A stretch of 63,916 bases of DNA, filler included, from Folioceros fuciformis (taxonomy: Eukaryota): assembly GCA_049999805.1 (NCBI GenBank). It is 15 parts of 15 records of this genome, joined end to end, with 100 filler letters (N's around TTAATTAATTAA, not from the genome) between each part and the next. Parts side by side here need not be neighbours in the genome. Positions count along the whole stretch, not along the records: positions 48,575 to 54,117 come from JBNGIO010003205.1; 14 more parts are not named here. One strand, given 5' to 3'. Position numbers and translations under genes: made by a program. A model generated the notes under the pieces. That model searched no databases and was not told the DNA's origin. It saw only the letters and a list, made by a program, of their open reading frames with translations. Positions 2,923-63,916 of the stretch are shown here, piece after piece. Within the stretch, counting starts at the first letter, position 1; each line of letters starts with the position of its first letter.

Positions 2923-3987
2923 TGTGGTCCACCACTCCTCCTCCTTCTCTGGTTGCTGAGGACAGCCACAGGCCCCCGTTCTACCCAGCGATGGGCCTCC
3001 TCTTCCATTAGTTCCTCCAGAACTGCCTCCGCATAGCAATGGGGCAGTCCTGTCACCCACCAGCTGTAGTGGTAGAGTCCCAGGCGCGTCCTCAACTGTA
3101 GGCCGTAGCCCCGCGTCCCTCCTGTGCCCATACGTACATACAGAAACAGCTTCAGAACCCTGGCCCCTTCTACATACAGGCCTGGCACATAGGAGGCCTC
3201 CTCCTCATATTGCAGCACAATCCGACCTTCCGTCATAACAGAGGTGCTTACCCCATCCTCCCTTGGGCTACCTCGGGTTGCCTGCTCCCCCTCCTGCTGG
3301 GGTACCTGAAGGTTCTCTGCCTGCCCAGCTGTTGCCTCCTCCGGCTCTGTCCTCCTGGTAGGGGTCACCCTCCTGGAGCGCCTAGGGGCAGGCGCCCCTA
3401 CTGCTTCCTCCTTCATTTCCAAGGTTGGTTCTTTAGCTATCCTAGGCCTTGCTGGGCCACCGGTAGCCTCGTCGACTACTCGACTACCAGTAGTCCCGTG
3501 GACTATCAGGCTACCGGTAGTACCCTCAACTACTGTTCCCCTGGTTCGGCTACCGGTAGCCCCTTCTGCTACCGGGGTTGCCGACTGACTCGGACGCCCA
3601 GCCTTGCCCTTCCCCTTCACTCTCTCTCTGGCCTCATCCCACTCCCGCTTGTATCTGTCAGCCAACTTCTGAGCCTGCTCCACAGCGGCTATCTCCATCT
3701 TTTGTGCCCTGGCCATTTCCTGTTGCATCTCCAGGTTAGTCTCGTGAGCCTCCCTCACCTTAGCTAGCAGGGTCTCCTGTTGCTCTTTCAGCGCCTGCAC
3801 TTCAGCCCTTGCCTCGTGCGCCTCTTCCTCGGCTTGAGCCTTCTCCCTGTCCAGGACCCGCTGCTTCTCCTCTAGCAGTTGCCGCGCCGTCTCCGATTCC
3901 GCCAGTTGCCTCCTTGCTTCAGCCTCTCGCTCATGAGCCTTCTCCTCCTTTCCCCGAGCCTCGGCCTCTCGCTCCGCTTGTACACTT
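2923..3987 (-). mobile_element. Gypsy-associated extra ORF (E/A/R/K coiled coil, S/T/G repeats, C-terminal globular part), truncated at both ends
   Basis: Frame is open from 3987 to 2923 (track ORF 2910-3800). A degenerate homolog lies at 44697-45135. Confidence 0.5.
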
Positions 3988-19499: not shown

Positions 19500-21534
19500 C
19501 CGGCCCGAGTTTATCTACGCATGGCTGATCAAACCAAGAGGAAACCCTTGGGAGTACTTCGGAATGTGCCAACAGTGATTGGAGGAGTCACCTTCTATCT
19601 GATCTACATCGTTATGCGACCTGTGTCTGATTTGGGGTATAAGGTTCTCCTAGGAAGGCCATGGCTGTATGGCACCACTTGTGTCTTCGATTTCGGGAGG
19701 CAAGGCGTCACCTTTACAACTCGACAAGCAGGGGCCAAGGGGACCGCTTTCGTCTCCTGGAGCAGAGCGCCCTACGGAGGGGAGATTGAACCGCCCACAG
19801 CAGGTTAGACTTCCAGAGGAACAGGCGACAGCTCCTTGGGGGCATATCAAGGGCTCTACGCGGAGGAGAGACACGTTGACAACCCGCGGTGCTATCGGGT
19901 GGATGCGATCGTGGAGGATAGATCGGAGGAGGGCCCGCCTCCGCTCGCAGAAACACCCATCGCCTGGAAGGAGTCCCCCGGGGAGGAAGACGAGGGTCGG
20001 AGGGAAGGCTCGGCTTTTTGGAAGGGGTGAGCTTTTGATCAGGATTTTCCCGAGTGGGAATCTAGGACAAGTGTAGGCAGCAGTCCCGAGGGGGTCTATG
20101 TCGACCCCGATGCGGTGGAAGAAATGGAACTTGAGCCTGGTAAGAGTGTCAAAGTGTCCAAACATTTGCTGCCCGAGGAGCGAGGGGGACTGAAGGCCCT
20201 CCTACAGGAATACATTGATGTATTCAAGTTCAAAGTAACCGATATGAGTGGAATGCCAGAAGAGTTGGGAATTCATCGTATCGACCTAAAGGAAGGAAGC
20301 ACTCCGGTGAGGGTGAAGCAATATCGGTTGAATCCCAAGTATTTGATGGTGGTGAAAGAGCAACTGGACCCAGTATCTGGAGGCGGGAGTAATTTACCTT
20401 GTCTGCACCAATGATTGGGTGCCTCCCATCGTGGTAGTGCCCAAGAAATAGCCAGCGAAGGTCAGGGTCTGCTAGGACTTCCGTAAACTGAATAAGGCCA
20501 CCAAGAAGGATCACCACCCTTTGCCCTTCTTGGACAGCATGCTGGATACCGTCACGGGCCACGAGATGTACAGCTTCCTGGACGAGTATTCTGGCTACAA
20601 TCAGATTTCTCTGCGAAAAGAAGATTAGGAGAAGACCACCTTCACAACGGATTGGGGAACCTTTGCGTACTCTAAGCTTCCTTTCGGTCTCTGCAATGCC
20701 CCTGCGACCTTTCAGAGAGTGGTGAATACCATTTTCAAGGACTTGCTCCAAAAGATCATGGAAGTCTTCTTAGATCACTTTTGCGTATTTGGGAAGCGGG
20801 AACTGCACTTGGATCACCTACGCAAGTGTCTGTAGAGGTGCCGGGAAACAAATCTCAAGCTCCACCCTGGCAAGTGTTACTTCGGGATGACGGAAGGCAT
20901 CCTGCTGGCTCATCGAGTGTCAGCACGGGGACTACAGGTGGACCACGAGAAGGTCAAAGTAATCGCTGAGATGGACGCCCCACAAAACGTGAGACAGGTG
21001 CACTCCTTTGTCGGTTTGGTAGGGTACTACCGCCGCTTCGTCTGCAACTTTGCCAAGAAGGCTGCTCCTCTTACCCAGCTCACCAAGAAAGACGGCCCTT
21101 TCCAGTGGACCGCTAAGAGGGAGGCAGCATTCCAACAATTGAAGGCAGGCCTGGTTCGGGCACCAACGCTATAACCTCCGAATTGGGAGAAGACGTTCCA
21201 TGTGGACGTGGATGTGTCTGCTTACGCCATTGGCGCTGTTCTCAGCCAGCGGGACACACAGAGTCGCGACCATCCCATCTTTTACGCTGGCAGGCAACTG
21301 ACTAATGCAGAACAGAATTATTCAACGACCGAAAGAGAAGCGTTGGGCATCATCTATGCCTGCAAGAAATTTTGACATTACCTCTTGGCGTGCAAGGTAG
21401 TGTTCCATGTGGATCACTTTGCATTGAAATACCTGGTCAACAAGCCGGACCTTTCGGGAAGAATCGCCAAGTGGGTCCTACTCCTCTAGGAATACGACTT
21501 CGAAGTGGAAACTCGAGCGGGGAAGAAACATGTC
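19500..21534 (+). mobile_element. Degenerate Ty3/Gypsy pol (non-chromovirus, Athila/OTA-like): protease tail, RT, RNase H
   Basis: VLLGRPWL; KDHHPLPFLD..YSFLDEYSGYNQI; PFGLCNAPATFQR; NYSTTEREALG; SGRIAKWVLLL*EYDFEV. Confidence 0.92.
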
Positions 21535-28222: not shown

Positions 28223-30181
28223 ATGACGCCAATCGTCAGGCGGGCTGTGCAGCAGCAAGGAATTCAGACGCAGGTGCTCCATTGGCCCGCAACTGCACGC
28301 ACTAATGCTGTGTCCTCGGATTTGAGCATCGCTGTATGGAGACAGAAACTCCCCGTGGCTGTGTCATCTTTGCCCCATGATTTGCTCTTTCTGCAAGTTC
28401 GCAGACCTTGGTTGGGTGCATCTCTCAGATTACAGCCATCCACGGCTTGGAACTGTGGGTTTGTACGGGGATTCTACATGCGGAACATTTCTCAGCTTGT
28501 GTCGCCGGCCAATGGCAGGAGGGCTTTTCTCGTGGATACTTTAGCACTGGTATACTTGCTTAACCTCGGTGCTGTGCAATTTGGGCGATTTTTACCCGTG
28601 ATATTATTACCTTCACGTTCTATCAGCAGATTGCCATGCTGTCTTATGCTGCATCCTGCCTCTTCACTTGGATGCACCGTCATTGCTTGCGCTTTAATGG
28701 TTGAAAGCGCTGAAGCAAAGATAGGAAATGGTGACCCGGTTCGGGTTCATCGTCCCATTTCCAGCGGGATACTTGTCAGCCGAGTACTTCGGCTTGGCCG
28801 CTTCTCCGACTTTCTGGCTTATCTGATATAGGTCTTCTCCTCTTGTTCAGCGGTGTTTTTGCTACCCCTTCATTGAGCTCCCAGTCAAGAGCGTTCCATG
28901 TCGTTGCCACTGCGTTCAGTTCTTATGCCTGATTAGCTTTCATGTCGTCAGTGAATTTTTCATTGTATCTGTTGACCCTTTCCTCTGCGTTGCTTGGCCT
29001 GTTGTAATAGGGAACCCATAGTACTACTTGTTGCTTGGCAGGTGCGGAGGCTGGAAGCACAAGGTCTGACAGCTAAGCAGGCTGAAGCTATAACGGCAGT
29101 TATAACAGAAGTACTGAATGACAGCTTGGAGAACGTTGCACAGTCGTTCACGTCCAAGTCTGAGATGCAGAGAGTAAGTTCTGTGTAGGAAAGTTCCCAT
29201 CTTGAGGTTTAGTTGGTCCTGACTCGTTGGGAAGTAAATTGTGGCCAGTCTTGCGGATTTTGACCTTCGCAATCATGTATTCTTTTCTTCAGCACAACTA
29301 ATACTCTGCCTTGCTCTGTACAGAGTGAAATGATGCAGGAAGCTGCTCTCTCAAAATATAAGGGAGAAATGCAAAGCTCCCAGGTAGTGTCATGAAGGAA
29401 GTTGCTTTGAGATCTCTGAACGTCACAGCGCATTTCATTGATGATTTCACTGATAGCGTCCCTACAATATGATAGGAGCATCATTTCGCTACTCAACAGA
29501 GGGAAACAGAAAGGCTACGCACAGATATAGACAAAATGCGAAGTGAACTCAGGTCAGCGGGTTGATCAAGTACAGGACAATGTATGTGTATGTTGCCAGT
29601 GGATCAATGATTTGCTGAAACTTCTCCGTGTTGGCAGGTACGAAATAGATAAAGTCACTGCTGGCCAACGCTTGGATCTGAACTTGGAAAGAGGGTAAAT
29701 ACTTTGTTCCTTTTACCAAGTTTCAGTCGGAAGTTGTGTCGAAGCTTGGGTGGCCATGTTTTGAGGTCATTTTGTGGATGTTTGTAGCCGCTTGAGGGAG
29801 GAACTAGCTACTCAAAGTGCTGAAACTTCCAACCTTACGAATAAGCTGGACAGGGTGAGGAATCAGGAGCCTGTCATGTAGTTATTCTCTCGTTCCATCT
29901 GTATGGGAGTTTTTACGTAAAGGTCTCTGTTTCCAGGAGATCCATACGCTCAAAACCCAGCTGGAGGCTGCTAAGTATGACGTAATCAAGTACTGCATAG
30001 GTAGGGAGCCTGGTTGTTGGATTCACGTGTGGTCTTCTGTGTCTTGCCAATGGTGCTCTCTGGCAAGTGAGTTTATCCTTCACTACTGCAACTAACTCAA
30101 TACCACTATTCGTGTCCAAATACAGGGAGTATTGTGTCTGTCACAGCCGTAGGCCTTGGTCTACTGCGTATTATCATGTGA
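28223..30181 (+). CDS. FMP32/CCDC90/MCUR1-like (DUF1640) mitochondrial coiled-coil protein, about 279 aa. Exons 28223-28549, 29042-29173, 29324-29383, 29476-29552, 29638-29694, 29788-29854, 29937-30000, 30126-30181.
   Basis: All introns are GT-AG and phases join to 840 nt. RAFLVDTLALVRRLEAQG..QAEAIT, RYEIDKVTAGQRLDLNLERG, KYDVIKYCIG and a C-terminal TM. An extra in-frame intron in exon 1 (28274-28435) is possible. Confidence 0.92.
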
Positions 30182-30917
30182 GCGCACTGGTCGGGGTTTT
30201 CGCAATGTGCGTACCAACTCCTAGTGGGACGCCGGGCTAGGTGGTTTGTCTACAGGCGATTGGTCTGAACTCGAAGAAACGTCAAACTCTTTGACAAAAC
30301 TGTTCCCCACACTCCTTTTCCTGGGTGTACCTTATTTCAACGGTAATAATCATGGTCATTACTGCCGAGCATTGATGTCTAACCCGACTTCTCTCAGAAT
30401 TCGGAATGCCAGAAACAATTCATTGCGTCCATGTCTCACGACCTTTCCTTTCGGCTTCGTTTTCGTCAGGAGATCTTCGCATGTAGGCTTGGATGTTGCG
30501 CCTGGAAGGTTCTAATTGTGCGAGAAATGATTGCTGCTGTGGACATGTTTATTTGTACAACGATGCCTCTAACATAGTCATGTTTGGTATGCCATAGGAT
30601 GGCCGTCTTCATAGTAAAACGAGTTCCGATTGCTCTGAATATGGATTGCGTCATGCAAGGAAAACGAGGCCGGAAAAGATATTAAAAGACTATAGGCATA
30701 CTGTTTGTACATACATTCGTACGTAGCCCATGTGAGCCTTGTCTGACTACCGACGCTAGAGACCCATCGCGCCTTGAAGCATGCAAGCAAGTGCTTACGC
30801 AGCTGCTCTGAGCGGTGCTCCAGCGAGTATTGCAATACATTTGTCACTCGGACGGATCGTGTGGAACAGGCAGGGAGATGACAAGCTGAGGTTGTAAGAT
30901 TCGCATCAGCGCGTCTG

Positions 30918-32231
30918 ATGGTGGAAGCTGTGGCGCTCTTGTGTAAGCGCACGGGGATGGCTTGGGTCCAGCGCCTGCTTTGGAGCCTGCGGGGTCAGGC
31001 ATGCACAGGTGGGTTGGCAGCAGCCCGACAAGAGCACCTTCTGGGCCTTAGAGTTGTTGCATCTGCCACGGTTCTGGACTGCAGTAGCCAGGGACTGCGG
31101 GGGATCTTGCCAATGGCTGATACCCTTGCCTCTGGATGGAGTGCTTTGGCCGTTGCCAAGTGGAGGATATCAACAGCGGGGAATACTGTTTCGCGACAAA
31201 TGCACAGGGGCTATGCCACCGGTAGGGAAGGCGCCGGGCAGCGGTTGCAGTACGAGTTCCAGGTGCTGCAGCACCAACAGCGACCTGGGTTCAGGATTAG
31301 GACCGTGCCTTACAGCACGGAGTCGTTCCAGCAGGGCTGGGCAGACAAGTGGAAATCCTTCCGGCAGAGTGTCCAGGACGCTGCGCTCTCCAAAGGGGCA
31401 GCATCGGGGACGGGACTTCGCAAGGCGAATGTGGCCACACAGAAGATCTTGAAGGAGACTGCCTTCGTGCCTGGTGCCGCTTTGAGGAGCTCCGTGTCTC
31501 GGTACAGGGAGGCTGCCCAGCTTCAAATAGAGGCGTTTTGGAAAAGGAATTATCTGGTTGTGGTCGGGGTAGCCGCCGTGGTGTTGTGTCTCCTTTTGTG
31601 GAGGATCATGTTTGGGGTCGCCAGCACTTTTGTGGGGCTATCCGAGGGCATGGCCAAGTTTGGATTTCTGGCCCTGGCAGCAGCTTTTGTGGCGTTTTCT
31701 GGTTTGATTGTCCGGGCAAGATATACAATAAATCCAGATGCAGTTTACAGGACAGCCATTCGTAAGCTTAACTCATCTGCTGCGCTGTTGGAAGTCCTTG
31801 GTGCTCCACTCACTGGGACTGACGTGCGAGCTTACGTGATGTCGGGGGGAGGACTAAAGCTGAAGAGTTTCAAACCACGCCTAACAGGGAAACGTTGTTT
31901 CCTGATATTTCCGGTAAAGGGTTCTGAAAGGAGGGGATTGGTTAGTGTGGAGGCTAAGAAGAAGAAAGGTCAGTACGAGTTCAAGCTGCTGGCTGTGGAC
32001 ATTCCAACTGCAGGAGTTGACCAGCGGATTTTCTTAATTGGTGATGAGAGTGAGTATAAAGTCGGCGGTGGACTTATCTCCGAGCTCAGAGAGCCGATAT
32101 TGAAGGCCATGGAGGCACAGAAGGAGTTTGACGATGAAGACGAAAGAGAAGCTGAAGAAGAGGAACGGTTGGAGCTCCTCCAGGCGGAGAAAGATGCAAA
32201 GGAGCAGCTGAAGAAACAGATTGACGCTTGA
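30918..32231 (+). CDS. At2g40800-like mitochondrial inner-membrane protein (Tim21-annotated family), intronless, 437 aa
   Basis: Presequence-like N-terminus, two TM helices, YTINPD.VYR, GAPLTGTDVRAYVMSGGG, KRCFLIFPVKGSERRGLVSVE and an acidic tail. The start codon could be 30957. Confidence 0.88.
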   Translation: MVEAVALLCKRTGMAWVQRLLWSLRGQACTGGLAAARQEHLLGLRVVASATVLDCSSQGLRGILPMADTLASGWSALAVAKWRISTAGNTVSRQMHRGYATGREGAGQRLQYEFQVLQHQQRPGFRIRTVPYSTESFQQGWADKWKSFRQSVQDAALSKGAASGTGLRKANVATQKILKETAFVPGAALRSSVSRYREAAQLQIEAFWKRNYLVVVGVAAVVLCLLLWRIMFGVASTFVGLSEGMAKFGFLALAAAFVAFSGLIVRARYTINPDAVYRTAIRKLNSSAALLEVLGAPLTGTDVRAYVMSGGGLKLKSFKPRLTGKRCFLIFPVKGSERRGLVSVEAKKKKGQYEFKLLAVDIPTAGVDQRIFLIGDESEYKVGGGLISELREPILKAMEAQKEFDDEDEREAEEEERLELLQAEKDAKEQLKKQIDA

Positions 32232-36634: not shown

Positions 36635-39600
36635 TTTCGTACAACTCTGAGTAATTCCGCTCCTCCCAGTGGTCTCACCATTGTAAACATAGAAGGTAGC
36701 CTGTTAATAGAAGAGGTGAACAGGAAGAATATGGAACCTTCGAAAGGTTCCAATGCCCTCATGGTGAGAGGAAGGTCCACTTCAAAGGAGAAGTACAAGG
36801 AGCGAAGTCTTTCTCGTAGCAAATCTTGTAGTCATAACAATGTTGACTGTTACCATTGTCACAAGTATTTTCTATGATTGAAAAAGAGATGGAAAGTCCC
36901 ATCTACTCCAAAGATTGGAGGAACAACCCCATTAGGGCCAAAGGCAAAAAGAGGTACTCTCCCCTGCGAATATCATTTTCAAAAACTACCTACTGCTCCC
37001 AAAATGTCATGATGTGGAATAACAAAAGGCCTACCTACCACCGATGCCGAAGAAGCCGCTTGACCTGCACTTGTTGCTATTCTAAAAATTGCATTGGCCA
37101 ATGCTCGTTGCAAAGCAATGGATACACGTTGTCGAAAGAAGGCCACCACAGAGGAGAGACGGGGAACACCATTCCTATTGCTCTGATAAACCTTGGCGCA
37201 CTCCTTGATAAACCTTGAAAAGTCCTTGCCCATAGCTCCATGAGTCTCAAGAGCAAGGGGGATGAAAGTATGCCCGTCTTGCAAAGGAGAATACTTATGG
37301 ACTTTGGCACTTGCACAACCCTCTGCTGCCCAACCAGGGGGGTTGATGATGATGTGCTCACAAATCGAATCCCTAGAGGGATCTGTAACAACCACATCAG
37401 CAACACAAACCTATTCTCCCCTAGTGAAGAAAAGGTCGGCTCTAAGTGAAACCCCATTACGCAAAGTATATGGACGCTCCCTATACGGAAGAAACCCACA
37501 CTCCCTAGCCATTGAGAACATGACATCTTGAACTGCATCGTGAGTGGCAATACGGTGTCCCCCAACAGGACAACGTGCCAAATGGGACCCTGTATCAACA
37601 ATGGCAACCCAACAACTGCATGTAGAGAGAGAAAAAGCCAAGGGGTGGGCCAAACCTAAGCGAAATCTCAAAAGTTGCTGGTGCGATTCGAAACGCCTGC
37701 ATGCAAGGTCGAGCTAAAAGCCAAGAGCCCGCTCCTTTACCTGAACAAGATCGAATACGAGCTCGAGAAGACCTAGGGATGGATGAGTCTAAAAGAAGGG
37801 CTCTTAATGCTTGGCCATATTGCTTTTCTAGGAGGGAGGCTTGGAGACCCTTCAACCCTTCCCTAGAAAAGGAGGTGAAAGGAGGTAGAGCCTCACGAGC
37901 CTCCAAAGGTAGAGAATCCCTCGCTTGCCTAAGAGATACCTGTAAAGAGAAAACGCCCTCCTCAACACTTGAAATAAAACTTTCAAGAACAAGGGAATCT
38001 TGTAGCAAAAAATGAGAGGCCAAAATTGGAGTTGAGAGGGCCTAGCTGCCGAGAAAGGCAGTTGGGGCAGAGGCCTCCATGGCCAAAAGACCAACCCCTC
38101 CAAAGGTGATTGGCAAAGAAGCCTGCTTCCGAGCCAAATCACCGACAGCACACTCGAAGGTGCCCGGACCTACGATGTTCCCAAGAGCCTGCATAACTTG
38201 ATTGTCAAACTTCCTGAGACTTGATAAGAAAAATGGAGAAGGTGCAACAGTTCTAGTGAGGTAACCTGGTTGCCGTGCAAAACAAGAAGAAAGGATACCA
38301 AACGCAATCTGAGGATCACCGATTTGTGAGAGGTCCATGATATGAGCCAAATCTTCATCCAATGCTTCATCCACAAACCCATGAACAAAATCAGGAGGTC
38401 CCACAGGCACACCCAAGACTCGAAGTCTCCACGAGGGGGTGATATCCCCCCTTAAATATTGAAGGGGGGAAGTGATGCTTGAAGGGGACCAAACCCTGCA
38501 TTTAGATAGCTTGACCTGCAACCCAACCTTGGAGAGCTCTGATGAGAAGAAATCAAATGTTGCTTTGACTGTGACTCCTTGCCCAAGAATATGAGTGTCA
38601 TCAGCCACGGAAGGGAAAAGGCATTCCTGAAATGCTAAGGCAATAAGTAGAGGACAACGCACGAAAATGCGCCATCGCAAAAAGAGCACCCCCTAGCGGA
38701 TCCCCTTGCCTTGTGCCTGTTGCTGAATCAAAAACTGAGACCCCCTCAATAGTCGGGCCGTGTTGGTAGTAGAGCTTGGATGGCGAGTCATAGAAGGAGC
38801 GAACAAAAGGGATAAGACTTGCTAATTGACCTCCTGCACTCTTGAGCTCTGAGAAGATGGCGACCCTAGAGACGGTGTTGAAAGCATTCTCAATATCAAC
38901 CTGCAAAGCTACCCAGTGAGGATGTAACTCAAGGGTAGCTTGGATGCCGAGAGCGGCATATTCACACCCACCTGGGGTAGCAATCCCAAATTGGTGGGGT
39001 GCAAGATGCGCTTGGAAGTACTCCTGAAGTTGAATTGCGATACTTCGGCTGATAAGGCGCAGCAATAGGGCGCACTCCTGAGGTGGGCTTTTTCAATGCA
39101 AGTAGCCTACCAGCCGCCAAAACTTGAGAGATTCGATTGGGAACTTCGCCCCTGGCCACAGTAGCTGCTAGTGTATAAAGCTCCGAAAAACCACTTGAGG
39201 GATTCTCAACAGAAAAAAAATCTCAAAAATGGTCATAAACTGTGCTAGACAAACCCCCTGCCGAAAGTCGTGGCGCACAAGAGAGTGCATGCCCAAAAAC
39301 AACCCTATCCAAGCAAAAAGGCTCCTCGACCGTGTGGTCAAGAAGATCTTGTGGTATATGTCATGAGGTTATGGATGAAGGGCACGAAGTGCAGCAATGA
39401 TGTCCTCAGTTGTAGGTGCAGCCAGCTCTGGGCGCAATGCACTAGCAGCCCGAGCATATTCACCATCCCTGCCCAACATGAGACACCGCTTGAGACGCGT
39501 TTAAATGGGTCATGGCACACCTTGTCAACCTTAGCTAACTCCAATCAAGATTTTGCTGCTAGTAAGTCCTCCTCCTGAAGAGCTTGCCAATCTCCGGATC

Positions 39601-40184: not shown

Positions 40185-40640
40185 GCTCAACCCTAGACCC
40201 ATTTTGCTCCACAATGTTTATAAAACCCTAAACCCACTTTTCTCCATCGTGTCACTAAACCCTAAACCTGTTCAGCTCTGCCATGTCACTAAACCCTAAA
40301 CCCATTTTTGCTCCATAATACTGATAAAAACCCTAATCCATTTTTCTCCACCTTGTCGCTACACCCTAAACCCACTCCACTCTGCCATGCGGCTAAACCC
40401 TAAACCTATTCTGCTCCATCATGTCGCTAAACCCTAAACCTATTTTTCTCCGCAATGCCCATAAACCCTACATCCATTCTCCCCCGCCATGCCCTAAATC
40501 CATTATGCTACTGCCATGCTTGTAAACTGTAAACCTTGTTGCTCTGCCATGCCACTAAACCCTAATCTCATTCTGCTATTCCATTTTACTAAACACCAAA
40601 CTCATTCCGCTTTGCCCTGCTACTAAATCCTAAACCTTAC
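40185..40640. repeat. Degenerate ~33-35-bp array containing plant telomere-like AAACCCTAAACCC
   Basis: About 12 AAACCCTA-like cores at regular spacing within the CRE 5' region. Confidence 0.85.
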
Positions 40641-46553: not shown

Positions 46554-48474
46554 TCGTCAGGCTGAACACCGGCAGCTAACATCTCCTCAAAACAAGCTAG
46601 AGCCTTGCGACCTTCATCACAAGCACCATACCCAGCGATCAGGGCATTCCATGTCACCAAATCTTTAGCGGCCATCCTGTCAAAAACCTGGCGTGCATCT
46701 TCCAGCTCACCACATTTTGCATACATGTCCACCAGGCAGTTTCCCACCACTACATTGTCCACCAGTTCTCTCTTGACAATCTGTGAGTGAAGCTCTCTGC
46801 CCTTCTGCAAGGAACCAGTGCTTCCACACGCCTTCAGAAGGCAAGCAAAAGTAACATCATTAGCCAAAACGAGGCCAGCCTCCTCCATTTGTCCATGCAC
46901 AACAAGCGCCTCTTCGCCGAATCCTTGCTGTTCATACCCAGCAATCAGAGCTGTCCATGTAACCACATTCTTTGTGTTCATGCTGTCAAAAACCTGGCGG
47001 GCATATTCCACCTCCCCACATTTTGCATACATGTCCACCAGGCAGGTTCCCACCACTACATCATCCAGCACACCTCTGCTGACAATCTGTGAGTGGAGCT
47101 CCCTGCCCTTCTGCAAGGCACCAGTGCTTCCACACGCCTTCAGAAGGCAAGCAAAAGTAACATCATTTGCCAAAACGCAACCTGCCTCCTCCATCTGTCC
47201 ATACACAACAAGCGCCTCTTCGCCGAGTCCTTGCTGTGAATACCCACCGATCATGGCTGTCCAAGTCACCACATCCTTCGAGGCCATGCTGTCGAAAACC
47301 TGGCGGGCATATTCCAGCTCACCACATTTTGCATACATGTCCACCAGGCAGTTTCCCACCACTATATTATCCAGCAGTTCTCTCTTGCCAATCTGAGAGT
47401 GAAGCTCCCTGCCCTTCCGCAAGGCACCAGTGCTTCCACACGCCTTCAGCAGGCAAGCAAAAGTAACATCATTAGCCAAAACGAGGCCTGCCTCCTCCAT
47501 CTGTCCATACACAACAAGCGCCTCTTCGCCGAGTCCTTGCTGTGCATATCCAGCAATCAGGGCCGTCCATGTCACCACATCCTTCGAGGCCATGCTCTCA
47601 AAAACCTGGCGTGCAGATGCCAGGTCACCACATTTTGCATACATGTCCACCAGGCAGGTTCCCACCACTATATCATCCAGCAGACCTCTGTGCACAATCT
47701 GTGAGTGAAGCTCCCTGCCCTTCTGCAAGGCACCAGTGCTTGCACACGCCTTCAGAAGGCACGCAAAAGTAACATTATTCGCAGAAATGAGGCCTGCTTC
47801 CTCCATCTGCCCATACACAACAAGCGCCTCTTGGCCGAGTCCTTGCTGTGCATACCCAGCGATCATGGCTGTCCATGTCACCACATCCTTTGAGGCCATG
47901 CCGTCGAAAACCTGGCGAGCACCTTCCAGCTCACCACATTTTGCATACATGTCCACCAGGCAGTTTCCCACCACTATATTATCCAGCAGTTCTCTCTTGA
48001 CAACCTGTGAGTGAAGCTCCCTGCCCTTCTGCAAGGCACCAGTGCTTCCACACGCCTTCAGAAGGCAAGCAAAAGTAACACAGTCAGCCAATACGACGCC
48101 TGCCTGCTCCATCTGTCCATACACAACAAGTGCCTCTTCGCCGAGTCCTTGTTGTGCATACCCAGCGATCAGGGAATTCCATGTCACCACATTCTTCGTG
48201 TCCATGCTATCAAAAACCTGGCGTGCATCTTTCATTCGCCCACATTTTGCATACATGTCCACCAAGCAGCTGTTAACAAACAAGTCAGTACGGAAGCCAC
48301 TGCGCAACACGTCGCGGTGCACTGTTCTGCCAGATTCTAAGTCGACAGCAAATGCACAAGCTTGAACGGCGGCTACAAAGACATAACCATCCGCCTTCAC
48401 TTCTGACCTACGCATTTCATGGTACAGTTGTATGGCCTCCTTCGGCTTACCGTGCTTAGCATGTGCAGAGATTA
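46554..48474 (-). CDS. PLS-class PPR protein (probable organellar RNA-editing factor), partial at both ends
   Basis: Stop-free frame with about six P-L-S triplets (VVTWxAxIAGY / VTFACLLKAC / CLVDMYAKCG) ending in a P2-like motif. Confidence 0.95.
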
Positions 48475-48620
48475 NNNNNNNNNNNNNNNNNNNNNNNNNN
48501 NNNNNNNNNNNNNNNNNNTTAATTAATTAANNNNNNNNNNNNNNNNNNNNNNNNNNNNNNNNNNNNNNNNNNNNTCACAAGCGATCTGCCAGATTGAATA
48601 GATCTGCAAACGACAGAAAC

Positions 48621-49088
48621 ATGCGTCAGTCTATTCCTATAGCAAACGACGAAGACGCCAGCCCTATTCACACACCTGCTGATCTAAGACGAGAAGAAGA
48701 TCAAGAGATTGCAACCTTGTTCCCTGAAATCCTTGATGTATACAGAGTATTGAGTGACCGTCTGACCAGAACGGAGGAAATCCTGCTTAGGCTAATCGCC
48801 AGACAGGGTTTGAACTCAGTACATATGCACGTGGACCTCACAGACAGGCTTGAATCCTTCTTCACAGATACCAACGGACGTTTGGAGTTGCTGTCTCGAG
48901 ACCTGAATTATTTGCTGGAAGTTGTATGCAGCCAGAATCGCCGTGACACAACAATCTCTATTGTTCAACCTCACGTAGCATTGTATCTTCCGACTTTGGT
49001 TCCCGCTCGAGACAGATTAGATGCTGAAAAAGTGACCAACTTCGCAGCAACAGAGGTCAACAGCAAGCTCAGATCTGAATCGCCGTGA
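48621..49088 (+). CDS. Extra sense ORF upstream of gag in Copia I (155 aa, leucine-rich helical)
   Basis: Intact ATG-to-TGA frame, 248 nt before the gag ATG. Confidence 0.45.
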   Translation: MRQSIPIANDEDASPIHTPADLRREEDQEIATLFPEILDVYRVLSDRLTRTEEILLRLIARQGLNSVHMHVDLTDRLESFFTDTNGRLELLSRDLNYLLEVVCSQNRRDTTISIVQPHVALYLPTLVPARDRLDAEKVTNFAATEVNSKLRSESP

Positions 49089-49336
49089 CTTGCGACGTTT
49101 CAGCAGGAAAGGGAAGCCTGTCCCGTGACACCTGCACCAACGGTCATGCACCCTTACGGTTAGGGTACATCGTTTCATACTTACAAGTTTTTTTTAATGG
49201 GCTACTTACCTGTTTTTTTAGTTTGCCGTATAACGTTCGGCATGACGTTTCGTGCACCCCTCAAGTAGTCCTTTTTCCGCATGCTCGTTTCAGATTGTTG
49301 TTGCCTCAGTCTCAGAATCCTGCAGGCTAGACATAA

Positions 49337-52300
49337 ATGGATACTAGTCCACCTCCTCCACCACTTCCTCCTGGCTCATACAATCCTATCTTTACGTCTG
49401 ATCTGAAAGAGAAAGATAGATTCACAGGTCAGAGGTATGAAGTGTGGAAAGTACGCATGAAATCGACATTGCTAGCTAGAGGAGTTTGGGGCATTGTAGA
49501 TGGCTCAATACCTGAGCCTGACCCAAACAAAACAAAAGGAGAACAAGACAAATGGGCACATGCAAACAGCATTTCCATTGCCCTCCTTGTTGGTGGTCTG
49601 TCTGAGGATCTCATCCCTCAAATTGAGTTCCTGACAAAAGCCAGTGAGATCTGGAAGCAGTTGGAGAACCAATACCAGGTCAACAATGTCCTTACACTCT
49701 GTACCCTCAGAATGGAATTCTATGGACTAAGAATGCGGGAAGGAGACAAGGTGCTTGCTCACACCAGCAAGTTCAGACATCTCCGAGCACAACTTACCTC
49801 CATGGGTACTGTAATGGACGAAGTTGATGCTGTAGCCCAACTATTAGCCAGTCTCCCACCTAGCTATCAATCTTTTGTATCCGCCAACAATGTTCCCATC
49901 AGACAAGCAAAGGCTGCTGGTGCTGCTGGGAAATCCTCCTCACTCACCTTAGATGAGGTCATTGGTGCACTCTTCCACAAAGAGCAGAGTAGACACCTGT
50001 CAGGGTCTGGACGTTCCAAAGCTGACAGGGTGCTCACTGCTTTCCGTGGTCGAGGTGGTCAAAGAGGAAAACAGCGGATGCAACAGCCTTTTCAAGGCAG
50101 TCGATTTGACGGTCCCCGACATGATGCAGGTTCAACCTCCACAGCCAAGAAAACAGGAAACTGTAATTGGTGTGGTCACCCTGGTCACTGGGCACGGGAC
50201 TGTAGAAAGAAGAAAGCCGGCGAGCCACAGAAGGCCTCCCGTTCTGCTGCAAGTGCCACCATGAAAGAAAAACCTGGTGACACCACAAAGCCAGTGGTTA
50301 AAATCCTAACAGTTTGCCTTTCTTCCCTTACAGGTGATAAGGCAGCATGGTACTTGGATTCTGGGGCCACAGCACATATATGTAGAGATGAGTCTCTCTT
50401 TGAGTCTCTCACCCACTCTTCTAATATAGATAGAGTTTATTTGGGTGATGAGCAGAATACCACTAGCCTGCAGATACAAGGACAGGGGTCCTGCACATTC
50501 AGGCTACATGATGGTTCCCTGCTCACCTTGACAGATGTTCTCTATGTCCCTAAAATGGCAAAGAACCTCTTGTCCTTAAGCAAACTCCTACAACTCAGAC
50601 GTTTCAAGCTTACTGCTCATGACGACTTTTGCTGTTTCTCCAGAGTGACCTCACCTTCGATATGTGTTTTCAAGGCCTTACCAGAACATGATTTGTATCG
50701 TCTGGATTTCACCTGCTTGCCATACAGCAGAAACACGGCTTATGCAACAAGTGTCGGAAACCTTACGGCACAACAGCAGTCTATTTTATGGCATGCCCGG
50801 CTTGGCCATCTTAATCGCAAGACCCTGGCATCCATACATAAAAACGACTGTTACAGAGAGCCGTTGCCTACCTGCCTCAAGGAGCTTCCATTATGTGAGC
50901 CATGTGCTCTCGCAAAGCAGAAGGAGTTGCCGTTCCCTGCTGGCCCCGCACATAGGTCCACGCAATCCCTTGAACTTGTCCATGGTGATATTTCTGGCCG
51001 CCTTCAGGTTTCTTCACTTGGGGGGGCAGACTATTATTTCACCATCACTGATGACTATACCAGACTCACATGGACATTCCCCATGAAAAGGAAAAATGAG
51101 ACCTTCCCCATCTTCCAAGACTGGTTGGTTACAGTTCAGCGCCAGACCGGGTGCTTGTTAAAAATCTTTCGATCTGACAATGGCACCGAGTTCGTGAATC
51201 AGTCGTTCACAAACCTATTTTCAGAACACGGCATCATTCATCAATTAATAGTGCCGTATACCCAGCAACAGAATGGCGTTGCAGAACGTAAAAACCAGAC
51301 TTTAATGGGAATGACAAGAGCAATGTTATTGTGGTCAGGTTTACCATCACCTTATTGGGCAGAAGCTGTCGTGACAGCTACTTACATTCTGAACAGATTG
51401 CCCACAAGTTCTCTTGCTGCCAAGACTCCATATGAACTCTTCTGGAAGAGGAAACCAAGTCTTCTCCATCTCAGGGTTTTTGGCTCTAAGGCCTACGCAT
51501 ATATCCCTGTAGAGAAGAGACGCAAGTTAGATGACAGGTCAAGAAGGCTCATCTTTGTGGGTTACAGCGAAACTGTGAAGGCTTACAAGTTGATAGACCC
51601 CACAACTCTGCAACCTACTCTTGCGAGAAGCGTCACTTTTATGGAATCCTTACAGTCTGCCTCACTTACTGCAGAGTCTGTTGAGCAACATGTAGTTCCA
51701 GAGGACGTGACCAGCAATGAGGCACCCACAGGCTTACATTCCTTGTATCCCATGGATGTGGATGGCACAGTCCCTGCTGTGACAGTTGGTGATGCACAGG
51801 CAGATGCTGTTCCTCCCATTGCCGATCTGGATGTCAATCCAAATGGAACTCCAGCAGTTGCTGATGATGTTGCTAGTGATCACTTAGAAGAGCGTCCAGC
51901 ACTTACAGCAGACGATGAGTTAGTCCTAGACCCAGATCCAATGGGTTATCATGCTGCAGGCATGGATCAAGGTAATTTAGAGGAAGATGAAAATCCTTTT
52001 ATCCCGGAAGATGACTTACTTGCAGATGATGACTATCTTATGCCTGCCGCTGTTGAACCAACTTCACCTGTAGCTTTGGCACCTCCAGAAGATGATGGAC
52101 CACGTAGGTCAACCCGCTACAGGCCTCCACCTTTGGAATGGAATGAACCACGTTATCAGTCTGTTGACTTTCGCCACTCTGCAGGAGCTGTAACTTCTCC
52201 TCCACCTGTCCCACCAGAACCTGCTAACCTCACTGAAGCTTTCACAGGTCCTGACAAGGACAAATGGAAATTCGCCGTGGATGATGAGTACAACAGCCTA

Positions 52301-53437
52301 ATGAAAAATGGGACATGGAAGTTAGTCCCCAGACCAACTAACAGGAAGGCCATTACGTGTAAATGGGTCTTCAAGCATAAATTAAATGCAGATGGGAAGA
52401 TAGCCAGATATAAAGCACGACTTTGTGCTCGAGGATTCGCGCAAGTTGCAGGTCTCGACTATCAGGAGACATTCTCTCCTGTTGTTCGTGCCCAATCTCT
52501 TCGGTTACTCTTTGCCTTAGCAGCTGAATACGACCTTGAACTGCAGCAGATGGATGTATGCACTGCTTTTCTCCATGGCATTCTAGAAGAAGAACTGTAT
52601 ATGGAGCAGCCCGAAGGCTATGTTGATCCTGCACATCCGGAGCATGTGTGCCTGTTAATAAAATGCCTTTATGGCTTGAAGCAAAGTGCAGAGCGTTGGT
52701 ACAAGCGCTGTGACAAGGCACTAAAAGGACTTGGCTTTCGTCAGTGTGCAGCAGACTCAAATGTTTATGTGTTACAAAGAGGGGCAACTTACGTGATTCT
52801 TGCTCTCTACGTAGACGACGTCATTCTCGCTGCAAATGATATTGTCCTGCTGGCACAAGTGAAAGGCATGTTACAACAAACTTTTGAAATGACCGACAGT
52901 GGGGATCTTCTATTCTGCCTTGGCATACAAGTGTTGAGGGTCCGTTCAGAGGGACTATTGATAATCCATCAACACAAGTATATAGCAGAAATTCTACACA
53001 AGTTTAACATGGGCCAAGCACATTCAGCTACCACACCAGGTGCTGTGGGTGCTAAGCTAACAAGGTATGAATGTGCTACGACTGAAGCTGATCAACAGGA
53101 CATGCGTGATATTCCATATCGTCATGCTGTTGGAAGCTTAATCTTTGTTAGTAACCGAACAAGACCTGATATCCAGCACTCCGTAAGCACTGTTTCACAA
53201 TTCTTAGAACACCCAGGCCGTGCCCACTGGACGGCAGTGAAAAGAATATTTCGATACTTGAAAGGGACTCATCATATAGGCCTTTGCTATAGGAGCAGTG
53301 GTACTAGACACTTATCTCTTCAAGGATTCACCGACGCAGACTGGGCTTCAGACAGCGACTCCCGAAAAAGCCTCTCTACATACGCTTTCCTCCTGTCCCA
53401 AGTACTTCAAACCAAAGTGAGAGAGACTTACGGGTGA
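49337..53437 (+). CDS. Copia gag-pol polyprotein, 1366 aa, RNase H truncated
   Basis: CNWCGHPGHWARDC, WYLDSGA, HxxxxH..CxxC, RSDNGTEF, LYVDD and FTDADWA. Lacks STEAEY, CDN and ADxxTK. Confidence 0.95.
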   Translation: MDTSPPPPPLPPGSYNPIFTSDLKEKDRFTGQRYEVWKVRMKSTLLARGVWGIVDGSIPEPDPNKTKGEQDKWAHANSISIALLVGGLSEDLIPQIEFLTKASEIWKQLENQYQVNNVLTLCTLRMEFYGLRMREGDKVLAHTSKFRHLRAQLTSMGTVMDEVDAVAQLLASLPPSYQSFVSANNVPIRQAKAAGAAGKSSSLTLDEVIGALFHKEQSRHLSGSGRSKADRVLTAFRGRGGQRGKQRMQQPFQGSRFDGPRHDAGSTSTAKKTGNCNWCGHPGHWARDCRKKKAGEPQKASRSAASATMKEKPGDTTKPVVKILTVCLSSLTGDKAAWYLDSGATAHICRDESLFESLTHSSNIDRVYLGDEQNTTSLQIQGQGSCTFRLHDGSLLTLTDVLYVPKMAKNLLSLSKLLQLRRFKLTAHDDFCCFSRVTSPSICVFKALPEHDLYRLDFTCLPYSRNTAYATSVGNLTAQQQSILWHARLGHLNRKTLASIHKNDCYREPLPTCLKELPLCEPCALAKQKELPFPAGPAHRSTQSLELVHGDISGRLQVSSLGGADYYFTITDDYTRLTWTFPMKRKNETFPIFQDWLVTVQRQTGCLLKIFRSDNGTEFVNQSFTNLFSEHGIIHQLIVPYTQQQNGVAERKNQTLMGMTRAMLLWSGLPSPYWAEAVVTATYILNRLPTSSLAAKTPYELFWKRKPSLLHLRVFGSKAYAYIPVEKRRKLDDRSRRLIFVGYSETVKAYKLIDPTTLQPTLARSVTFMESLQSASLTAESVEQHVVPEDVTSNEAPTGLHSLYPMDVDGTVPAVTVGDAQADAVPPIADLDVNPNGTPAVADDVASDHLEERPALTADDELVLDPDPMGYHAAGMDQGNLEEDENPFIPEDDLLADDDYLMPAAVEPTSPVALAPPEDDGPRRSTRYRPPPLEWNEPRYQSVDFRHSAGAVTSPPPVPPEPANLTEAFTGPDKDKWKFAVDDEYNSLMKNGTWKLVPRPTNRKAITCKWVFKHKLNADGKIARYKARLCARGFAQVAGLDYQETFSPVVRAQSLRLLFALAAEYDLELQQMDVCTAFLHGILEEELYMEQPEGYVDPAHPEHVCLLIKCLYGLKQSAERWYKRCDKALKGLGFRQCAADSNVYVLQRGATYVILALYVDDVILAANDIVLLAQVKGMLQQTFEMTDSGDLLFCLGIQVLRVRSEGLLIIHQHKYIAEILHKFNMGQAHSATTPGAVGAKLTRYECATTEADQQDMRDIPYRHAVGSLIFVSNRTRPDIQHSVSTVSQFLEHPGRAHWTAVKRIFRYLKGTHHIGLCYRSSGTRHLSLQGFTDADWASDSDSRKSLSTYAFLLSQVLQTKVRETYG

Positions 53438-53593
53438 GGACCACGTCCTCGGATGTTGTTGTTAATCCTGTTTGTTCTCCAGTCTCTACCGACACCTGGA
53501 GTTAGGGGACAGGGAGGGTTAGACAGTAACACCAAATTCCGGCAGCAGGTGGATGAAGCTCCACGTTTTCTAACTGACCTGGATGTTGGAATA

Positions 53594-53929
53594 TCACCGC
53601 TCTCTCTCCCGCCTTTCTTTGAGCAGCTGAAGCAGCTTCTCTGCTTCGTGAAGTGGCTTGAGCAAGCTGGAGTTCTCACCTACATCTGCTGGCAAACCGC
53701 CTTCCCCTTCCATTTTCACTGGCCTGCTCCAGCACAGCTTCACATCAAGTGCAATCCTCCAACCACCAAGTGTCACACTCGAGCCCAGGACATGGCGTTC
53801 ATCCCACTCGTCAGCCTTCGGAGGCATAGGGCGCGGCGGCTGTTTCTTCTGCCTCCCTCCCTCTTTCTTGCTCTGCTCATGCACGGGGCTTGCGGCCTCT
53901 TTCCTTCCCGCTTCACGCCCGGGAGCCAT
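53594..53929 (-). CDS. Antisense gene in Copia I (111 aa, MAPGREAGRK..., basic N-terminus, C-terminal coiled coil) with predicted UTR introns
   Basis: CACCATGG start context. Introns 54073-53943 (GTAAGC..ATTCTCAG) and 53578-53496 (CAG|GTCAGT..CTAAC..TCCAG), plus donor GTAAGT at 53431. Confidence 0.5.
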   Translation of the reverse strand: MAPGREAGRKEAASPVHEQSKKEGGRQKKQPPRPMPPKADEWDERHVLGSSVTLGGWRIALDVKLCWSRPVKMEGEGGLPADVGENSSLLKPLHEAEKLLQLLKERRERER

Positions 53930-54217
53930 GGTGATCAGCAGACTGAGAATATGCACGCAAGTGTACACGACTGTGATGAAGGCAGCGTAAGCTGTCGCGA
54001 TATTCATAGCCATCCTGCCAGCTCAGGCGCACAGGGGCGCACTTGATTGTAGTTGTTGGGCGTAATCGCTTACGTCCCTCAACTTTCCGCTGCGCGCTCC
54101 TTGTGACTGTCCTTTGGNNNNNNNNNNNNNNNNNNNNNNNNNNNNNNNNNNNNNNNNNNNNTTAATTAATTAANNNNNNNNNNNNNNNNNNNNNNNNNNN
54201 NNNNNNNNNNNNNNNNN

Positions 54218-61085: not shown

Positions 61086-61381
61086 GAAGTCGCAGATCTA
61101 AGAGGTTAGGGTCGTTGTAGTGACTGGAGTGAGTTTGTGGGCACCAAGAGAGGTGCAGCTGACCGCTGGACAGCGAGGCCTGTCCTATGCCTGATCGGAG
61201 CTGGAGGGGAGCCCTCGAATCCATCATCGAGTCGATCAAGTCCGACCCTCCATCCATAGCAGCAAGGAACCCCATCTCTCCTTCGTGGGAACGAAACCCA
61301 ATGTCTCAACGACAGTGGGATAAGTGTGGCCATTAAAGGTGGAACCTGTCGGCAATCAGTGCCCGGGGTTTTGCCTCCACA
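61086..61381 (+). mobile_element. Family L1 LTR 3' end
   Basis: Near-identical to 458-751. Confidence 0.65.
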
Positions 61382-62959
61382 GGAACTCCGGCGGGTAGTG
61401 GAATCGAGCGGCCAAGCAACGGGAAACCCTAAGTAGGGACCAAGAGAGTCAGCATGTAATTCCATAGAGGAGCGCAACCGCAGTGGAGTCGGGGAGCAAA
61501 AGTGGCGGACGGGACGCGGGTTGAAGGCAAGCAACCGGAGCAAAGGGGTGGCCGAGCACGGCGGCTCCTGAGTAGGGTAGGGACAGCGCAGGCGGCGATC
61601 AACCTAGGGAAGGCGTGGCGCCAGTGAAACGACAGAGGAAGGCTGATGGAGGAAACGGCTGCAGAGCTGGTGCCGACGGATGCGACCAAGAACATGGAGC
61701 AGGTTCCTATGCCCTTGATGGAGGTCGCTTTCTGGCTGAACATGGACCACTGGAGGGCCAGAGCCGAAGAGCAGTTAGAGGAGCTAGGCCTCCGGTTCAT
61801 GGCCCAACGATGGAACCATGTGGCACCCGCCTTGGTGCAGGAGTGTGCACACCGACTAAGGAATTAGACAAAGGGGGAAGCCCGAGGATTGGAACGCTAG
61901 GCTGGTCCAGACAGTGTATGGGCGCAGCTAGGAGAAAGCTGGGGAGCTGGTGATCGAGTCCCTAAGAAAACACAGCACCATGGCAGCAGCAGCGGCACTG
62001 TTCAAGGCGAGGATAGGAAGAGAAGCCAACAGTTGGTTGGCACGAGAGATGGCGACCGCTAAATTCATGGGGGTTGGCCAGGTGGCTCTTGTGTTTCTTG
62101 CAAAACAGGAAACAAGATTACCTGTCCGACCACATGCTACTGTTCTTGCATGAGGTGGTCAAAGGGAGCAGGATTGACTAGGGGAAGATCATTTATGATC
62201 GACTGAACGAGGAGAGGCATAACCTAACCTCCCCCACTCCCCGTCCGTCACTGATCTCACCTTTCCTAGTGCATTTATATTGTCATGATAATAGTCTGCC
62301 AAAGATAGAGGTCGTTACCTCCTTGCACATGTGGAAGCCAGTCAAGGACGTCAAGTGGAAGCCGGGGGAGCCAAAGGAGGAAGCCAAATCCAGCAGCTGG
62401 GAGTCAGGGGCCATGGGGAGCTTAGAGGAAGAAACGACAGCCAATAGGAAGAGGAAAGTAGGGGCTAGGCGGAAGACCCCCGCCAAGAAAAGGAAGGTCA
62501 GTGGCCACGCCACCAAATTGCGGGAGATTCGGCGCTGCAGGAGGTCACCCAAAAGGTAGGTGACAAGCCGTTGAATGTACCTCAGAAAACAGTGCCAAGA
62601 GAGGGAGCAAGCTCAGCTGAGGTCACAGGTTAGTTAGGGCAATCTCAGGAGGAAGAACCCTTCTTGGGGTGGGAAGAGATTTTCAGGAACATCCCTTTGG
62701 TGGCTAAGCTATAGGAGGATCTGGCCAAAGTACGCATGTTGTTGGGAAGGTAGATTCCGGATAGGAGGATGACTACCGAAGGCGCATCCCAGCAAATGGA
62801 TTTACTAGGCCTAACTATGGCTATGGTTCGGGCATAGGCGGATATGCTAGACCAAGCTGCACAAGCGCTGACTTGGTTGAGCATGCAAGGGCAAAAGGAA
62901 GAGGAGACATAGGCTAAGCTGTCTAAGGTTGAAGCAAGCCACAACAACTGGAGGAGGTT
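61382..62959 (+). pseudogene. Decayed Gypsy-associated extra ORF (plant-mobile-domain-like, NLS-like basic tract)
   Basis: Fragments LEELGLRFMAQRW, ID*GKIIYDRL..SLISPFLVHLY and RKRKVGARRKTPAKKRKV, with stops and frameshifts. Confidence 0.45.
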
Positions 62960-63916
62960 TGTGGGATTAAAATATGGTACCCGGGGGTACTGCGAGGTCC
63001 ACACAAGCCCTCTATGTCGTTGTAGCTCTGGGATTCGATCCCAAGGGAATGATTTGTGTTAAACTACACAAGTTAGCTTTTAAAGTCAATTAACACCTAA
63101 AGCTCAACTGACCCACATACACACATTCCGTGCTCGGACCTTACCAAGCCCCTTACTTCTACCACCAGACATCCCCACAACCACCCGGTCGTCCCAGGGA
63201 CTACCTCCCTGAACTACTCTTGGTTGCCCACCGGGCTACCCTCCGTTCCCCAATGGACTACTACCGTCGTCCTTCGGGCTACCGCTCGTGGGTCCCACTC
63301 TCTCTCTCTCTTCCTCTATTCTCTCTCTCTCTAGAGTTTTCTCTCTCCGAGTCGTTCCTACCCAACTGTTTCCGCACATCCCCTTTTGCGCTTCCCTTCC
63401 TTGGCTCACCACAAAACCGCCTCACACACCTTAGGAACAAACGCGCACACACATGAACAGCAGCAATCTGCCGGACGCCTTCCACCCGCGTGATCTCACA
63501 CCTTAGATACACCCTCTGCGGTCTCAATTCAACTTCTTCACAGCCTCTCCAGTCTCATCGCGATCAGTCACACATACACACCACGTCTCGTTGCACACAT
63601 TACTCGCCTCGCCTCCAGGGTTTCCCTCGCTTTGCTCTCTCTTACTCCACTCACCAGTCTTCTGTATACATTCTGCCCGTCTCAGCAGTCGTCAATTCAC
63701 TTCCACTCCGCTTCACTTCCTGCTCCACTCCTTCTGGCGTCCTTTTTGCATTCGCTCTTACCCACTACTCGGTCACTCGCGCCATCACGACGCTGCTGTC
63801 TAGTCCCGCCCTACTGCCGATCTAGCCCCTAGCCCCCTGTGGGATTAAAATATGGTACCCAGGGGTACCGCGAGGTCCACACAAGCCCTCTATGTCGTTG
63901 TAGCTCTGGGATTCGA
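62960..63916 (-). mobile_element. Family L2 LTR (62960-63837) with a second copy starting at 63838
   Basis: TGTGGGATTAAAATATGGTACCC at 62960 and 63838. Homologous to 2398-2922. Confidence 0.7.

Follow-up and report, generated by a model that had tools for sequence, protein, structure and literature searches.

Does a Copia retrotransposon of Folioceros fuciformis carry a spliced protein-coding gene on its antisense strand, between pol and the 3' LTR? This question is raised by the end of one record (JBNGIO010003205.1, positions 48575-54117) of the assembly GCA_049999805.1, where a sequence-only reading had described an apparently multi-intron antisense gene downstream of pol. We analyzed the locus within a window of 63,916 nucleotides, a stretch of 15 short records joined via N linkers; all positions refer to this window. 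The DNA sequencing runs X1 and X2 are from one sample, and both cover the record with near-identical contigs; coverage by run X4 (RNA by guess) amounts to one 40-nt piece in gag. On 48575-54117, run X3 shows C>T at 462 places and G>A at 591, a pattern resembling that of a base-converted methylation library, from which the methylation state of the element could be derived. The record stops early on both sides, and none of the Ty1/Copia ends (LTRs, PBS, PPT, target-site duplication) were found inside it. The features of the locus are as follows:

49337-53437, plus strand: Copia gag-pol ORF, 1366 aa, with Pfam RVT_2, rve, Retrotran_gag_2 and Pol_BBD; homology ends at aa 1354
53398-53402: break in RNase H, marked by the end of X1 contig 6, the start of X2 contig 14 and fading DNA likeness
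53403-54117: 715-nt segment, likely the family's pol-to-3' LTR spacer, from the run contigs; PPT and LTR absent inside the record
53594-54013, minus strand: antisense ORF, 139 aa from ATG 54013 (111 aa from ATG 53929), with a hydrophobic N-terminal helix, a basic middle and a C-terminal helix
53496-53578, minus strand: putative 83-nt intron (CAG/GTCAGT donor, CTAAC at 53522, CCAG acceptor), 15 nt past the ORF stop
53943-54073, minus strand: doubtful 131-nt "intron 1" of the earlier reading, with an open frame inside and the branch word absent
53426-53431, minus strand: GTAAGT donor-like word, 29 nt from the break; partner acceptor absent in the segment

The domain order of the gag-pol ORF is that of Copia (gag, zinc knuckle, protease, integrase, RT), followed by only the first ~25 RNase H codons, and the last 12 codons are supplied by the abutting segment. 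The nearest listed proteins are 53-54% identical. The homology ended at aa 1353-1354 in 84 of the 119 aligned proteins and at aa 1347-1357 in 111 of them; a narrow RNase H motif was present within the next 130 aa in 62 of the 119. The RNase H remainder (135 aa) of the nearest relative, located in record 17498, matched records 1, 33945 and 58148, and had no match in record 48575-54117 at E<=10. Together with the end of homology, this indicates that ~125-135 RNase H codons are missing, and the studied copy is non-autonomous. At the DNA level, similarity with the nearest relative tapers off at ~53398. Contig matches on the Copia side reach 53402, and those on the segment side begin at 53401, leaving 2 nt common to both sides, an overlap that would fit microhomology or removal via cryptic splicing. 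Thus, the segment does lie 3' of the ORF, as described earlier, but the pol in question is incomplete, being broken ~25 codons into RNase H. It should be noted that four Copia records of the window are broken at or shortly after the RNase H start (~53402, ~15763, ~13690 and ~59570), the breaks thereby clustering in this part of pol.

Whether the segment belongs to the element was approached through the run contigs. In X1, contig 6 stops at 53402, and the following contig starts at 53413. In X2, contig 14 (1065 nt) is aligned to 53401-54117, preceded by 308 letters and followed by 40 that lie outside this match; hence, the segment also occurs with different upstream DNA. None of the listed X1 and X2 contigs spans the join at 53402, and no link between the segment and an intact RNase H was seen in their aligned parts. 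Past 54117, the run contigs extend 23 and 40 nt. The depth of the segment was 41.4 in X1 and 27.9 in X2, compared to 34.2-53.8 and 23.9-37.1, respectively, for the Copia body. The single-copy depth was assumed to be that of hand-picked, low-depth diverged contigs (~11.4 in X1, 12 values; ~8.3 in X2, 10 values), which corresponds to 2.9-4.7 copies of the body and 3.3-3.6 copies of the segment. The window copy differed from the run contigs at 22 of 4924 and 25 of 4839 nt in the body (0.45-0.52%), and at 3 of 705 and 4 of 717 nt in the segment (0.43-0.56%). The similarity of segment and body in both copy number and divergence favours a single element, internally deleted in the window copy, and an X1 contig graph that stops at the break, combined with an X2 contig that has other DNA upstream, is the pattern expected from a deletion in one copy. 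Diverged contigs (at least 82% alike) added depth of +28 and +24 over the C-terminal half of the antisense ORF, and no depth over the integrase-RT linker or the 5' spacer. Because RNase H is cut off, we infer the link between segment and element instead of reading through it; on these data, the segment is quite probably the pol-to-3' LTR spacer of the studied Copia family.

Alternatively, the segment could derive from a different low-copy repeat, or be an LTR of some other element, that an insertion or a recombination event brought against RNase H. The 308 unaligned letters before 53401 in X2 contig 14, the coverage of the segment by diverged contigs, the absence of PPT and LTR in the record and the common occurrence of nested elements in the window (Gypsy-like and LINE RT pieces) are all compatible with such an origin, which is nevertheless improbable: the copy number and age of the segment are those of the body, two sister elements have the same layout (see below), and the segment has no match to other records or LTRs of the window. 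An assembly chimera at 53402 might be suspected from the shortness of the records and from the lack of listed contigs across the join; however, an X1 contig (X1 is possibly the source sample) ends exactly at the join, as expected for a read fork, and a second clade member, in record 14550, is likewise broken in RNase H yet has a spacer and a PPT/LTR-like start, so a chimera is highly unlikely.

Turning to the antisense strand of the segment, the minus-strand motifs named in the earlier reading are where it had placed them (GTAAGC at 54073, ATTCTCAG ending at 53943, GTAAGT at 53431). Its 111-aa ORF is also present, with CACCATGG containing ATG 53929 and the stop codon TGA at 53596-53594, but the frame is open for 28 codons further, giving 139 aa. 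The ATG at 54013 is the first one of the segment and has the A-3/G+4 context, as does ATG 53929. A closed antisense ATG-ORF of at least 139 aa appeared in 6 of 1000 shuffles of the segment, and one of at least 111 aa in 30 of 1000. The 139-aa product contains 22 K+R and 18 D+E, with a KD19 of 2.06, and its hydrophobic helix lies in the 28 residues upstream of ATG 53929. The AlphaFold single-sequence model of this product has helices at 5-29 and 118-138 (mean pLDDT 53, pTM 0.27) and is too weak for a fold search. The codon log-odds of the 139-aa frame was 0.12 with window-CDS training, which exceeds each of the 41 null frames and coincides with the median of 40 coding chunks; with host-gene training alone, it was 0.017, above 40 of the 41 nulls and below all 10 coding chunks. 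The single listed contig difference inside the ORF is synonymous, and in one of the diverged contigs the ORF lacks one base, at 53637. Overall, we lean towards the antisense frame being a protein-coding gene.

No homologues of the 139-aa ORF were detected with Pfam (E<=5), by word search, or by HMMER over 1.84 billion proteins, and the Atlas search gave no usable match. The Atlas recognition of this ORF was 1650, below the value of 2300 reached by 91 of 100 known proteins, a score that is undecisive on whether the protein is real. One candidate, P0121 (E 2e-7), was rejected as a homologue: it is a repeat protein of 534 aa, and its score is the sum of six weak repeats, the best of 30 bits. Rfam returned 0 matches at E<=0.1. 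A metagenome scan for Copia yielded 56 loci, all distant (30-63% over the best segment), and neither the 715-nt segment nor the antisense ORFs of the clade had a match in them.

The 83-nt consensus intron reported after the stop does exist as a GT..AG pattern (53578-53496) with a CTAAC branch; it is putative and host-like in form. Its donor scored 4.1, compared to 0.4-3.9 for seven host donors of the window (a generic plant matrix was used). Host introns of the window are 82-150 nt long, with one of 492 nt, and include a CAG/GTCAGC donor; they are the seven GT-AG introns of a CCDC90-like gene (28324-30181), the eight exons of which join into one open frame. This gene forms a tandem pair on the plus strand with an intronless 449-codon frame (30882-32231) that has weak Coa1/TIM21 matches, and a PPR array with a period of 306 nt (102 aa) is found at 46554-48474 (minus strand); this array and the CCDC90-like gene mark the host as a land plant. 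The full pattern of the 83-nt intron occurred in 31 of 500 shuffles under a first rule and in 27-45 of 1000 under a second one (~3-6%). Use of this intron falls just short of an even chance in our estimate.

The other proposed introns fared differently. The 131-nt "intron 1" is read through by the 139-aa frame and contains no CTRAY branch word, and its donor is not common to the run contigs: the near-identical X1 and X2 contigs have another letter at 54070 at full depth, which lowers the donor score from 0.5 to -2.7, below the host range. The word GTRAG was found 24 times on the antisense strand and three times on the sense strand of gag-pol (4066 nt), versus three and three times in the 715-nt segment. 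Since donor-like words are equally dense on the antisense strand of gag-pol, the description of the gene as multi-intron could not be sustained, and only the 83-nt intron is well formed. It should be noted that the intron rule was altered after looking at the data: the first rule caught the 83-nt intron, missed a 102-nt stretch in the nearest relative and caught a different one in record 1. With the second, post hoc rule (record 14550 left out), the antisense pattern was found in three of three spacers and the sense pattern in none of the three, against a background in the real window of 0.16-0.30 per kb, which is above that of shuffles. Intron-like patterns are also present in gag-pol, antisense versus sense, in the proportions of 5 to 0 in record 1 and 2 to 0 in record 48575. 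Antisense splice-like signals occur upstream of gag as well: a perfect CAG/GTAAGT donor is located at 49209 (minus strand), and three Copia records have CAG/GTGTGT intron-like stretches, at 48675-48604 (minus), 22741-22653 (minus) and 4546-4634 (plus). An antisense transcript might, judging from these upstream signals, run through the whole Copia element.

To place the element among its relatives, we used a tree of 70 rows built from the RT end and the RNase H start, with record 11177 left out as too short. The studied Copia belongs to a clade of 8 rows (99/92) that includes records 17498, 58148, 14550 and 1, as well as P0042, P0044 and the long-branched P0079; the Copia of record 33945, which has a spacer of ~50 nt, is outside this clade. 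The sequence of record 58148 ends in RNase H, which leaves three clade relatives with a readable 3' end; the LTR starts of these relatives are PPT+TGTT motifs only, the second LTR being absent. Their features are as follows:

18608-19000, minus strand: antisense ORF of record 17498, 130 aa, between the intact pol stop at 18385 and the PPT-like AGAGGGAG plus TGTTGG (19230-19243)
18472-18573, minus strand: intron-like stretch of record 17498, 102 nt (AAG/GTAAGC..CTAAT..TGCAG), 34 nt past the stop of the 130-aa ORF
14875-15597, plus strand: antisense ORF of record 14550, 240 aa, 61 nt inside the PPT-like AATGAGTGGGAG plus TGTTAG; LTR-like start at 14814
4216-4630, plus strand: spacer of record 1, 415 nt, its Copia being on the minus strand; antisense intron-like stretches; longest antisense ATG-ORF 53 aa

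The nearest relative, in record 17498, has an intact pol and a spacer of 852 nt. The Copia of record 14550 is on the minus strand, and its RNase H is also broken early (~15763), with the spacer and the PPT/LTR-like start kept. The antisense ORF length was reached by 36 of 1000 shuffles for record 17498, by none of 1000 for record 14550 and by 172 of 1000 for record 1; thus, the ORF length is beyond shuffles in three of the four clade spacers (joint 0/1000), and the antisense frames of these spacers always outscore their own shadows in codon score. Antisense ATG-ORFs of at least 110 aa were found in two of the three independent relatives versus 2 of 26 background strands of the window (~0.02 by simple arithmetic). 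Among unrelated Copia loci, 1 of 41 (tblastn-located, from the 56) has such an antisense ATG-ORF, although this set is a weak control because it is AT-rich (GC 0.29-0.50) and redundant. No likeness was detected among the antisense ORFs of the clade (best E 0.14), and none of the 75 word-search candidates scored for the 130-aa ORF of record 17498. An A-NI--AY-A-I likeness between the 139-aa ORF and the frame of record 17498 was discarded, as it was reached by 228 of 2000 local and 148 of 2000 global shuffles (59 of 300 for DNA). The earlier suggestion of an antisense accessory gene on the 3' side of this Copia lineage thus agrees with the match of depth and divergence to the body, the coding-like codon use and the layout in two sister elements, but it had missed the cut in RNase H.

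Several other frames and repeats were observed around these elements. A 360-codon coiled-coil-like frame (2913-3992, minus strand) lies immediately past the LTR-like start of the Copia in record 1; it has the highest coding score tested and no Pfam match, and nearby DNA recurs in record 61086-63916. A Gypsy-like RT piece, recognised by eye, lies past the LTR-like start of record 17498 (19653-20769). Record 33945 contains a LINE-like RT (RVT_1; 38045-39092) and, upstream of its gag-pol, a 34-nt tandem array with telomere-like TAAACCCTAAACC words (40202-40640). Upstream of gag in the studied Copia, a plus-strand frame of at least 170 codons (48576-49088) is open from the first base of the record, with a codon score of 0.09-0.11, no Pfam match and Atlas matches only under 0.8. 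Its ATG at 48621 is not common to the run contigs, and a run contig over this frame reaches into gag and 449 nt further upstream; the frame is a possible 5' extra ORF of the family.

Accepting the segment as a Copia spacer leaves the status of the frame to be weighed. It is unlikely, if less so than the other alternatives, that the ORF is no protein gene at all, the spacer being either just purine-rich or the source of a non-coding antisense RNA, spliced or not, that keeps the element in check, as in Ty1 and micropia. The lack of homologues and of likeness among the ORFs of the clade, the low Atlas recognition (for what this undecisive score is worth), and the intron-like patterns and the donor at 49209 on the antisense side of gag-pol would suit a non-coding strand; conversely, ORF lengths exceeding those of shuffles and antisense frames that score above their shadows argue for coding. 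The real gene might instead be the sense frame of 197 aa (ATG 53453), env-like as in SIRE, given that this length was reached in 1 of 1000 shuffles and that the frame has hydrophobic stretches. However, it is the exact in-register shadow of the minus-strand ORF and scores as non-coding (-0.01; -0.24 with host training), it has no Pfam match, and the longest sense frames of the relatives are 100, 94 and 26 aa, which makes a sense gene exceedingly unlikely. Capture of a piece of an intron-bearing host gene has the host-like 83-nt intron in its favour; it is very improbable, considering that no search found a homologue, whereas the host genes of the window match Pfam, and that the codon score fits Copia training better than host training.

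On balance, we somewhat favour the explanation that the segment is the family spacer, brought against a cut RNase H by an internal deletion in one copy, and that the frame is an accessory gene of the aORF-3R type (defined below). In this scenario, Pol II would transcribe the antisense strand of the spacer from a promoter located on the 3' LTR side. After scanning, translation would begin at ATG 54013 and yield a small protein, evolving fast, in which a hydrophobic helix is followed by a basic stretch (nuclear or nucleic-acid-binding) and a C-terminal helix. Splicing of the 83-nt intron, 15 nt past the stop, could proceed without triggering nonsense-mediated decay, for which a 50-nt rule holds. 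By analogy with gene23 of Grande, the product may regulate the element's own cycle, and the antisense transcript could act as antisense RNA to pol as well. An anti-silencing role of the predicted product is very doubtful. It is also rather unlikely, as a broader proposal, that an unlabelled plant Copia clade has a spliced antisense accessory gene as a lineage trait, with a family-specific arms-race product (e.g., a silencing antagonist) and an optional intron 1 that switches between a membrane-anchored 139-aa form and a soluble 111-aa form.

Among the elements with which this locus can be compared, AtRE1 is a Copia. Antisense additional ORFs between pol and the 3' LTR (aORF-3R) are exemplified, in the available text of the sources, by the Gypsy elements maize Grande (gene23), rice RIRE2, Silene Retand, PvRetro13 and fungal Boty (PMC7264820, PMC11963269); the gene23 product is nuclear (PMC7264820), and antisense ORFs are present in all Retand clusters (PMC11963269). 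The present case resembles them in being antisense to gag-pol, in its position (inferred in the studied copy), in the lack of a database homologue, in the basic helical product and in a presumed antisense promoter of its own. It differs from them, Retand/Tat included, in that the host element has the Copia order, not that of Gypsy, the spacer is below 1 kb versus 2.9-6.6 kb in Retand, and the ORFs are of 130-240 aa; Transposase_28 or a plant mobile domain is absent (no Pfam match of the ORF at E<=5), the putative intron is past the stop, and no conservation between families was detected.

In the accessible part of REXdb, antisense extra ORFs of at least 250 codons on the 3' side (eORF-3'R) are given for 86% of Retand, 60% of Ogre and 1% of SIRE elements; none is given there for Bryco, Lyco, Osser, Ale, Ivana and Tork, a statement that does not extend to Bianca and Ikeros, and Copia cases may stand in the per-element file (PMC6317226). 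Because only ORFs of at least 250 codons were counted, antisense ORFs of 130-240 aa would be missed. The env-like eORF-3'F of SIRE is similar in that a Copia has an extra ORF past pol and that the ORFs are highly divergent between families (19 unrelated groups of SIRE eORFs are distinguished); however, the SIRE ORFs are sense (74% of elements, 1% antisense), whereas the coding-like frame here is antisense (PMC6317226, as far as its available text goes). The longest sense frame here is a shadow of 197-202 aa, compared to the at least 250 codons of the SIRE env-like ORF.

The antisense promoters of AtRE1 and Mdoryco1-1 and the non-coding antisense RNAs of micropia and Ty1 have in common with this locus antisense transcription from the 3' side of an LTR element, a feature that is predicted here; they differ in that the portions of the sources at hand describe no antisense protein (PMC7264820, PMC12786077), and attention to antisense and spliced transcripts has been called for (PMC7264820). 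No description of a spliced antisense protein gene in a plant Copia was found in the literature searched, the scope of which excluded subscription papers. Antisense accessory ORFs have been treated as a trait of Gypsy (Retand, Ogre, Athila), with almost none in Copia in the REXdb table as available. The overall case for a Copia antisense gene is circumstantial. If it is true, short antisense genes are a recurring feature of different LTR superfamilies; this would point to a general regulatory need, and the ORFs described here would be compact candidates for learning what aORF-3R proteins do. Antisense accessory genes are known from Gypsy and rarely reported in Copia, and the layout found here has precedent.
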